UHGV virus genome: UHGV-0143126
Length of the DNA stretch: 19,594 nt
Origin: a virus
Strand: one strand, 5' to 3'
Numbering within the stretch: the stretch's first letter is position 1; each line of letters starts with the position of its first letter. The notes under the pieces were generated by a model. That model was not told the DNA's origin. It searched no databases and saw only the letters and a program-made list of their open reading frames with translations. Positions 5,612 through 6,736 of the stretch are shown here, piece after piece. The position numbers were made by a program, and so were the translations under genes.

Positions 5612-5977
5612 TTATTGAGCTAATTCTTTTTCGGCAGCAGTTTTTGCATACTCACATGCAAAATTCAGAATTTCGCTGCCGAGTGTTTTCGTTTCGTGAT
5701 TACTGGACATATGTAATACCTGTGTTGCATGCAATAAATGATAAACATTTACCGCAAATGAATCAGGCTCCAGACAAATGCCTTCGTAATTATCTTGCTG
5801 TGAGGTTGTTTCTGTCATTACTTCTGAAGTGCATGCGAGCCTGTTTTTGACAATTCTCTTTCCTCTAATCACTATATCGGCAACATCTATTGCCTTTACA
5901 ACCTCCGGGAGAAGTTCCGGGTTTGTATAATCAAAGTCATCAACATGGAGAACAGTTATGTTTTCGAACTTTTTCAT
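5612..5977 (-). CDS. Hypothetical protein, 121 aa; C-terminal ~45 aa paralogous to the N-terminal domain of the adjacent HTH protein
   Basis: GAGGAAG RBS. Residues 72-115 align without gaps to residues 27-70 of the 6106..6654 product (19/44 identical: DSFA.N...LL.A....H.......K.LG.E...F..EYA..AA). Confidence 0.6.
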   Translation of the reverse strand: MKKFENITVLHVDDFDYTNPELLPEVVKAIDVADIVIRGKRIVKNRLACTSEVMTETTSQQDNYEGICLEPDSFAVNVYHLLHATQVLHMSSNHETKTLGSEILNFACEYAKTAAEKELAQ

Positions 5978-6105
5978 GGCTTCCTCAGCTGACTTATATG
6001 TTCTGCTATATAGCGAGTCTCAGAAGTGTTTTCATATTGAGACTGTTTCCGCAATGATTGATAAAAATGTTCGCATGTACCTTGAAGGGCGAAGCGGCGA
6101 TTATG

Positions 6106-6654
6106 TCACCATTGGTATTGGTTCTTCCGCAGAAGAGCTTCGCGAGATAAGGGGCAAACTTGTTGAGATGCGTCATGGTGTTGCTGCTCCTCACTTTTTG
6201 GTTGCTCCGGAGGAGTAACCTCACCAGTTAACAGCCACATCGGATCGCAGCCAAGAATATTTGCCAGTGGGATAAGCATACTGATAGTTGGTTCATACTC
6301 TCCGCTCTCCCACTGGATGATAATTTCTTCATCGAGATCGAGCAGCCTGGCGAGTTCGGCGGTTGTTAAGCCGCAGGCTTCGCGTTGGGTGCGAAGGTTA
6401 ACCAGCCAGCTTTCAGGGAAGGATTGTTTTTGTTGCGCAGGAGAAGCAGCAGATAGAGCATATTCATGGATAAATTCCATTACCTCAATGCCCAGTTCCT
6501 TTGAGCGAGCACAATCCAGAAGATGGAATGTGCGTACAGCACTTAGCAAATTTGCAATATTTAATGCAAAGGAATCAAGTTCTAAGCCCTTAAGCGTAAC
6601 ACAGCCGCAGTTGATAAAATTAGTTGTTTCTGGAGTTGCTTTTAGTGTCTTCAT
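6106..6654 (-). CDS. Two-domain protein, 182 aa: N-terminal domain of unknown function + XRE-family helix-turn-helix; first gene downstream of the PL-like promoter
   Basis: HTH motif ...LTTAELARLLDLDEEIIIQWESGEYEPTISMLIPLANILGCDPMWLL... at residues ~93-140; ATG at 6654 with GGTGGA RBS. The ORF-track TTG start at 6684 is rejected. Confidence 0.65.
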   Translation of the reverse strand: MKTLKATPETTNFINCGCVTLKGLELDSFALNIANLLSAVRTFHLLDCARSKELGIEVMEFIHEYALSAASPAQQKQSFPESWLVNLRTQREACGLTTAELARLLDLDEEIIIQWESGEYEPTISMLIPLANILGCDPMWLLTGEVTPPEQPKSEEQQHHDASQQVCPLSREALLRKNQYQW

Positions 6655-6707
6655 ATATCCACCAACAATTTTAAATTGAATCAAATCAAGTTATAATTGA
6701 TGGTGCG

Positions 6708-6736
6708 ATATTATGTTTTGGGAAATAGCCTGTCAA
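6708..6736 (-). promoter_or_regulatory. Near-consensus sigma70 promoter (PL-like), leftward: TTGACA-17 nt-TAATAT
   Basis: Minus-strand read: tttcTTGACAggctatttcccaaaacaTAATATcgcacc. Placed between the cI terminator and the first early-left gene. Confidence 0.55.

Follow-up and report, generated by a model that had tools for sequence, protein, structure and literature searches.

Two adjacent genes of the virus genome UHGV-0143126, denoted A and B below, encode proteins that share a paralogous domain, predicted to be a two-helix hairpin, which in A precedes a helix-turn-helix (HTH) domain of the XRE family and in B is found without any HTH. Together with a candidate leftward early promoter, the genes lie within positions 5612 to 6736 of the 19,594-nucleotide (nt) stretch analysed here (hereinafter, the window). 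A first-pass annotation of this region, made from the sequence alone, had pointed out the similarity (19/44 identities) and favoured the reading that B is a titrating or heterodimerising modulator of a regulator, A. The similarity is real and statistically solid, and it extends to a modular, uncharacterised family at the position proximal to the leftward promoter PL. The favoured reading is plausible at this locus, but comparison across loci speaks against it as a general rule; we assign a probability of about 0.35 to the possibility that, in this window, hairpin-mediated association of A and B modulates the early regulator A in a SinR/SinI-like manner.

The hairpin shared by genes A and B

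Residues 24-70 of A and 69-115 of B align without gaps, with 21 of 47 positions identical and 30 of 47 positive (BLASTP E=2e-10). The Smith-Waterman score of the two proteins is 98, against a mean of 27.6 (standard deviation 4.6) and a maximum of 62 for shuffled sequences, none of 5000 shuffles reaching the observed value. At the profile level, A cross-matches the B-side profiles phrog_4587 (4.8e-7) and phrog_5451 (4.7e-6), and B cross-matches phrog_4836, the profile of A (3.8e-4); traces of the duplication are also detectable in the DNA (5743-5773 vs 6555-6585 and 5805-5823 vs 6623-6641). The paralogy is restricted to the non-HTH domain, and the residues common to A and B (DSFA.N, LL.A, LG.E, F..EYA..AA) are nearly invariant within the B family. 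AlphaFold2 (AF2) predicts a two-helix hairpin for the shared domain in both proteins. Hydrophobic residues account for 44-57% of the hairpin helices of A and B, which on biophysical grounds would be too high for a stable monomeric two-helix unit and suggests burial within an oligomer or in contact with a partner; hydrophobic two-helix hairpins of this kind are typical of oligomerisation modules.

Gene A (6106..6654, minus strand) encodes an XRE-family protein of 182 amino acids (aa), is the first gene behind the PL-like promoter and starts with an ATG at 6654 that is preceded by GGTGGA; it is the counterpart of L10 of phage phiP27 and is annotated by PGAP as WP_023151472, 'helix-turn-helix domain-containing protein'. 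In the AF2 model, a disordered N-terminus is followed by helices 23-45 and 49-69 (predicted local distance difference test, pLDDT, ~80), a five-helix HTH and a disordered tail. The two helices, in which 52-57% of the residues are hydrophobic, make up the head of the protein, a helical hairpin denoted type 1 (aa 23-69; 6448..6588, minus strand) that is paralogous to the B hairpin. The DNA-binding domain is a single five-helix XRE HTH (aa 81-143; 6226..6414, minus strand; pLDDT 80-90) ending in CDPMWLLTG. The Pfam profile HTH_3 (PF01381) matches aa 87-141 (43 bits vs a cut-off of 23, E=4.7e-11), in agreement with the earlier description of an N-terminal domain followed by an XRE HTH, and in a PDB sequence search the nearest solved structures for the HTH were P22 C2 (E=4e-5) and the 434 repressor.

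Gene B (5612..5977, minus strand; 121 aa), the counterpart of L08 of phiP27, is preceded by GAGGAAG, lacks an HTH, belongs to phrog_5451 (8.7e-82 over aa 1-121) and has no match in Pfam. The protein displays the layout of the B family (homologues in 29 clusters), that is, an N-domain (MKKFENITV...VVKNR) followed by a C-terminal hairpin. The N-domain (aa 1-48; 5834..5977, minus strand) is modelled as a small alpha/beta module with pLDDT of 70-77 that consists of a strand (9-12), two helices (14-18 and 24-32) and two further strands (35-38 and 41-45). A disordered linker (aa 49-69) leads to the hairpin paralogous to the A head (aa 69-120; 5618..5773, minus strand), which is predicted with pLDDT ~90 as helices 71-89 and 94-120. 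The coordinates, strong ribosome-binding site (RBS) and 128-nt gap between A and B (6105 to 5978) that had been reported for the 121-aa gene all stand; the gap, however, holds an antisense gene, L09, on the plus strand. RefSeq PGAP calls B as its last 68 codons only (WP_001436867; 6213-6419 in locus L001), 53 codons short, whereas the 121-aa form has a stronger RBS than the 68-aa call and its N-domain is conserved across genera. The 121-aa protein is the conserved form. Against locus L041, changes in the N-domain number 13/12/15 at the three codon positions, 5 being synonymous and 18 non-synonymous, and give no clear signal of purifying selection; its coding status is supported by the cross-genus conservation and from fusions of this domain to HTH bodies.

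Under the mechanism that we consider most probable, A would be an early-lytic XRE-type DNA-binding regulator, the first to be produced from a CI-controlled PL, and its N-terminal hairpin would be an exchangeable protein-protein (oligomerisation) module. B, made from the same promoter, would provide the same type of hairpin without a DNA-binding domain; hairpins of B would join those of A in mixed oligomers of the four-helix-bundle type, and this association would modulate DNA binding by A, probably by damping or timing it. We infer from the features described above that the hairpin oligomerises, that the A and B hairpins bind each other and that this binding lowers the activity of A. Association of A with B is favoured in this window because the two proteins carry the same type of hairpin, have in common the most conserved residues of the family and share a promoter.

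Module combinations and the pairing of A with B

A profile search against 1.8 billion representative proteins returned only 53 relatives, in which the modules occur in several combinations: a hairpin followed by one to three HTHs (P0166, P0170, P0175, P0182, P0192, P0193), the B-type N-domain followed by two HTHs (P0169, P0173, P0178), the N-domain and hairpin in the layout of B, the hairpin alone, and the N-domain with other tails. Free-standing hairpin proteins are 60-80 aa long (63-68 aa for the B type), and Pantoea encodes the N-domain and the hairpin of B in two distinct open reading frames (ORFs) that overlap, the one for the N-domain comprising 69 aa. Because the N-domain and the hairpin occur apart, alone or as HTH heads, B is, as judged by sequence comparison, an assembly of two modules, each of which elsewhere forms the head of an HTH regulator. 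In distant relatives (L084 1983-4316, L086 2542-4930, L090 4707-7025), cI is followed by expanded arrays, which include a second HTH regulator headed by the N-domain of B as well as a tandem series of small hairpin-like ORFs, three to four in number and different from each other.

The 159 homologues of A come nearly all from E. coli. The commonest form of the family is ~230 aa long (216-265 aa) and consists of a ~75-aa head and two tandem HTHs, with the 230-aa members covering 79% of A; the A protein of the window has one HTH and so lies outside this form. Otherwise it shows the layout of the family, namely a variable head and an HTH body that ends in CDPxWLLTG, encoded directly downstream of cI. 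The head-first domain order, previously singled out as an oddity, is therefore the norm in this family. The HTH bodies are 85-95% conserved, and the heads fall into sharply distinct types, at least 8 (seven in the initial count and one found later), which by pairwise score make up at least two groups (1/3/4/7 and 2/5/6). Given that the HTH body is conserved across immunity types, A probably binds DNA outside the immunity region; inspection of two left-arm intergenic regions for A-binding repeats yielded nothing convincing.

Single-HTH forms recur in the family (P0022, P0026, P0054, P0065), and the arrangement cI-A-L09-B with a single-HTH A is found in Escherichia, Salmonella, Citrobacter and Pantoea. 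The possibility that A is a recent deletion derivative of the tandem-HTH form was considered and dropped, given that the single HTH and L09 are kept together across these four genera; this combination is better described as an old alternative arrangement. A scan of species-representative genomes with the alignment of the HTH body returned two loci, in Pantoea and in Psychromonas, of which the latter was rejected as merely a CI-type repressor with a CDPEWLLTG motif. Among 5426 complete E. coli genomes, 318 encode members of the A family, usually one and at most two per genome, and Stx1a-, Stx2a- and Stx2d-converting phages carry them under the annotation 'transcriptional regulator'.

The survey of the pair beside cI that had been suggested previously revealed co-occurrence in the same four genera. 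In nearly every locus examined, A adjoins a B-type gene (or the hairpin-only pair S74/S63) next to cI, and the A-B pair has this position in hundreds of prophages; where L09 is absent, the stop codon of A overlaps the start of B (gap of -3 to -10). An A-family gene adjoins cI in 79 of 80 loci, and in 79 IMG/VR loci, covering 6 types, the type of the head corresponds 1:1 to that of the upstream cI. Such a correspondence could be taken to mean that a third partner, either an immunity-type-specific CI or Cro or a host factor, is bound by both the head of A and the hairpin of B, in which case B would compete with A for it, serve as an antirepressor or protect A in the manner of CIII. Other temperate phages encode small-protein antirepressors beside XRE regulators (PMC10432266), and the lack of detectable CII or CIII homologues in Pfam and PHROG searches would leave room for such a role. 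However, physical adjacency alone predicts the linkage if recombination joins the mosaic parts within the conserved DNA that encodes the HTH, and the linkage by itself does not demonstrate a functional connection; furthermore, the type of B does not track that of cI, and the Pfam Phage_CII profile is unmatched. We consider a common third partner quite improbable.

Like A with like B is found in several settings. In E. coli and Pantoea alike, a cI of type 1 goes together with a head and a free hairpin that are also of type 1, with 32-76% identity between the components, and P0175 loci have a type-4-like head alongside a type-4-like B. The architecture of the two proteins, the common hairpin and the location of the pair beside cI are thus in line with the modulator reading as first proposed; what did not withstand comparison is the expectation that like-with-like pairing is conserved. 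Among 77 loci with the same B (93-100% identical), the head is of type 2 in 44, of type 1 in 24, of type 3 in 5 and of other types in 4, that is, A and B do not co-vary, and altogether the same B stands behind at least 6 head types. The type-2 head has no detectable similarity to the B hairpin (z=0.8), and the A heads in the Salmonella and Citrobacter loci are likewise unrelated to the hairpin of B. Moreover, fold searches with the hairpin retrieved generic helical hairpins only, and literature searches found no paper on the A, B or L09 proteins. All of this weighs against modulation of A by B: like-with-like pairing appears to be one frequent combination and not a rule, and, with such varied heads in front of the same B, an obligate regulator/titrator pair cannot be claimed. 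It is the missing co-variation that makes it necessary to weigh two further explanations beside the third-partner one.

According to the first of these, the hairpin serves only for self-association (homodimerisation), as a generic module spread by shuffling among early genes, and A and B act independently. The active part of B would then be its N-domain, and the similarity to A would reflect common origin without interaction; unlike hairpins in one phage may even be favoured, as they would keep A and B apart. The occurrence of one and the same B behind 6 or more head types, of which the unrelated type 2 is the most frequent, the free exchange of heads on a conserved HTH body, and the separate N-domain and hairpin ORFs of Pantoea, along with N-domains that alone head HTH bodies, are all compatible with this explanation. 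It is harder to reconcile with the conservation of 63-68-aa genes that encode a hairpin and no other domain, which implies that the hairpin itself needs a function, or with the retention of the type-1/type-1 combination from E. coli to Pantoea. On balance, we regard a purely generic module as possible but doubtful.

The second explanation takes into account that several heads have free look-alikes: type 4 resembles the C-terminal domain of P0148 (z=26) and S74 (z=15), type 3 also resembles S74 (z=14), and type 5 resembles S63 (z=17). Free hairpins (S74, S63 and others), as well as the N-domain and hairpin of B, could accordingly be dominant-negative decoys that mimic the oligomerisation heads of early regulators of other immunity and disable these regulators in trans, by which heteroimmune lambdoid phages, those carrying Stx included, would interfere with one another at co-infection or co-induction, and the diversification of heads would be escape. 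Each free module has a look-alike head on the HTH bodies of other phages and mismatches its own A, different free hairpins occur in tandem (S74 with S63, and the L084, L086 and L090 arrays), and the hypervariable heads are borne on HTH bodies that are 85-95% conserved. Nevertheless, in the window and in many other loci the types match, which would amount to self-targeting; the A family is sparsely distributed in E. coli (318/5426 genomes, at most two copies), and mosaic recombination alone accounts for both the diversity of heads and their linkage to cI. A decoy function is therefore unlikely.

Modulation of A by B can finally be set against the notion, raised earlier, of a sensor-effector pair, and against the related ones of a toxin-antitoxin or anti-phage defence system. 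An XRE HTH protein next to a small uncharacterised protein is indeed a common toxin-antitoxin layout, and the RmrA and HTH models of PADLOC match A; these matches are confined to the HTH part. PADLOC has no match for B and only a chance-level Cas11a match for L09 (0.03), no enzymatic, toxic or membrane domain is present in these genes, the overlapping stop and start codons and modular hairpins are unlike known toxins, and the genes lie behind a repressor-controlled lytic promoter and would not be expressed in the prophage. Taken together, these features leave very little probability for any system of this kind, and the sensor-effector reading has no support. More generally, searches of Pfam, NCBIfam, PADLOC and PDB sequences gave no informative match for the hairpin, B or L09.

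The antisense gene L09 and the genomic setting

L09 (5958..6218, plus strand, with a start at 5958 or 5976; 80-86 aa) is antisense between A and B, with a head-to-head overlap of 20 nt with B and a tail-to-tail overlap of 113 nt with A; it matches phrog_6104 (1.4e-49), and its phiP27 counterpart has the same name. Between the window and L037, which differ by 24% in DNA sequence here, substitutions in the L09 frame are distributed 16/12/35 by codon position, with 25 synonymous and 21 non-synonymous codon changes and no change of ORF length. Homologues of 82-88 aa are present in Escherichia, Salmonella, Citrobacter and Pantoea, and in all four genera they overlap B by 20 nt and a single-HTH A by ~100-120 nt. 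The codon-position pattern, the constant ORF length and the cross-genus homologues with their overlaps indicate that L09 is a real conserved gene; PGAP does not annotate it in the identical RefSeq record. The search for an L09 promoter gave no clear candidate; a perfect TATAAT was found at 5926-5931, inside the B coding region, with no -35 element.

The tail of A (aa 146-182 and the stop codon; 6106..6219, minus strand) is a disordered read-through antisense to L09 with pLDDT of 32-56. In the same comparison with L037, its frame has 4 synonymous vs 42 non-synonymous codon changes; residues 146-182 of A are free of protein-level constraint and are a by-product of L09. The A-B interval is an insertion hot spot: in L081 (6207-6811) and in loci with a 575-nt A-B gap, such as L094 and phiP27 L103, a truncated L09 of ~50 aa is accompanied by further small ORFs that have been inserted. 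The place of L09 is taken in L086 by another antisense gene, which is CxxC-containing and 89-121 aa long.

The PL-like promoter (TTGACA-17 nt-TAATAT; 6708..6736, minus strand; -35 at 6736-6731, -10 at 6713-6708; 10/12 match) is present as initially described and is the best sigma-70-like site within 5000-8000. It is located downstream of a terminator-like hairpin (6789-6773) that directly follows the gene for the cI-type repressor (6801..7496, minus strand), whose HTH and peptidase S24 domains were identified by profile matches. The top 3 matches of the whole window to the palindrome ATCAAG-N5-CTTGAT are at 6685-6701 (ATCAAGTTATAATTGAT), at 6732-6748, overlapping the -35, and at 7520-7536, between cI and the cro-like YdaS gene (7624-7914, plus strand). 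The first two, candidate operators OL1 and OL2 (6685..6748), flank or overlap the PL-like promoter; in the cI-cro intergenic region, weaker copies are found at 7569-7585 and 7599-7615, and the ATCAAG half-site occurs 3 times (7520-7615). The palindromes shared by the two regions suggest that the PL region acts as the OL/PL counterpart of OR, which supports the PL assignment; it is reasonable to infer that CI represses PL and hence controls A and B.

No terminator-like site was found between A and B or anywhere on the minus strand from PL to xis, and promoter-like sites are depleted in positions 1-5700 of the window (2 observed vs 9.0 +/- 2.4 expected). Both observations are consistent with a single long PL transcript that reaches int. 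The absence of an N-like antiterminator from the early-left operon, reported in the first-pass annotation, holds for the ORFs of this operon with respect to N-like PHROG or Pfam matches and arginine-rich motifs (nut sites were not searched), and the N-terminus of A (MKTLKATPETTNF) is not arginine-rich. The corollary of a non-canonical early regulation does not follow because, in the absence of a minus-strand terminator-like site between PL and xis, there is no need to invoke a special antitermination scheme.

The chromosome of E. coli ATCC 43886 is 100% identical to the window over 2.5 kb around A and B, PhiR49_2, a phage of ECOR13, is 99.3% identical over the same 2.5 kb, and phiP27 and several Stx-converting phages match parts of it. 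To judge from these matches, the window derives from a phiP27-like prophage of E. coli. The ATCC 43886 element adjoins cmoA, yecN and a DUF72 gene and sits behind a tyrosine integrase. The leftward gene order is cro-like YdaS, cI, A, B, a run of small uncharacterised genes, xis and int; a Q-like gene is located at 14662-15060.

Several neighbouring ORFs deserve mention. A 37-aa ORF (MTFIKNMASHKTACLIAQYGENYMHIACLFLRKAYGK; 5458-5571, minus strand) with an AGGAGG RBS, between B and the next gene, is annotated in PhiR49_2 and absent from the PGAP calls. A 72-aa ORF of the left operon (4652-4870, minus strand) is named 'ParE family toxin-like protein' by PGAP, and a 275-aa ORF (3190-4017, minus strand) is 'SPFH domain-containing' in PGAP and 'lipoprotein' in PHROG; neither has a PADLOC match. 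On the other side of cI, the plus-strand segments 8785-8861 and 8886-8973 have Rfam matches at gathering level to isrK (57 bits) and C4 antisense RNA (80 bits), respectively. These matches fall in the 5' third of ORF 8728-9390, named 'ash family protein' by PGAP, so that its annotated N-terminus probably corresponds to RNA genes, a PR-operon module of the P1 c4/ant or Gifsy-1 isrK type.

Significance and comparison with known systems

The module occupies the position of lambda N in N-less lambdoid prophages, including Stx1a-, Stx2a- and Stx2d-phages and phiP27, the early regulation of which is essentially unstudied; the annotation of A, B and L09 does not go beyond 'hypothetical' or 'HTH domain-containing'. 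Provided that A is the early regulator and is modulated by B and the free hairpins, the module would help to determine when the prophage is induced and, with it, when toxin is expressed, and it would be a compact natural case of regulation by domain mimicry with swappable specificity modules. If, instead, the free modules are decoys, the hypervariability of the heads tied to immunity type would be the signature of an arms race. In either case, the annotation is corrected by the recognition of the conserved antisense gene L09 and of the full-length B that PGAP truncates.

The HTH of A is a typical five-helix Cro/CI domain ending in CDPxWLLTG, as in regulators of the DicA, P22 C2 and 434 type, although its score with the NCBIfam DicA model (NF007257) is 41.5 bits, below the 101-bit cut-off. 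Unlike these regulators, A has no S24 or other C-terminal dimerisation domain and bears an N-terminal head instead. Comparison with the PL operon of lambda brings out positional likenesses: A, like N, comes first behind PL, and, as with CIII, small helical proteins follow in the operon. The resemblance to CII is one of name only: phrog_4836, the family of A (1.9e-78), is labelled 'CII-like regulator' in PHROG as an annotation, whereas the Pfam Phage_CII profile does not match A at E<=1 and the gene sits in the PL operon.

A similar neighbourhood is found in the modules of a transcription factor (TF) and a small ORF (smORF) described by Silpe et al. 2023 (PMC10432266), where a phage XRE-type TF adjoins a small domain-less protein near the lysis-lysogeny switch. 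In those modules the smORF is divergent from the TF gene, is activated by the TF and inactivates cI. Here, by contrast, B is transcribed in the same direction as A and is a paralogue of its head, A and L09 converge, and PL precedes the unit as a whole.

The closest parallel to the proposed interplay of A and B is SinR/SinI (and SlrR/SlrA) of Bacillus subtilis. SinR, like A, is an XRE HTH regulator with a two-helix multimerisation domain, and SinI, like B, is an adjacent small protein that has the same two-helix domain and no HTH; according to the published account (PMC3163267), the heterodimer surface consists of residues conserved between the two proteins. A homology link was sought and not found, hhalign of the hairpin with the SinR/SinI helical hooks giving a probability of 0.06% and E ~0.77 with manually entered SinR and SinI sequences. 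The differences are substantial: the hairpin of A is N-terminal, so that the domain order is reversed; most A-family members have two tandem HTHs; B has an additional N-domain; at least 8 head types are swapped, and the partner does not co-vary with them; the genes belong to the PL operon of a phage; and the interaction of A and B is a prediction. The likeness is accordingly one of design, and the logic proposed for B acting on A is the same as that of the eukaryotic 'microProteins'.

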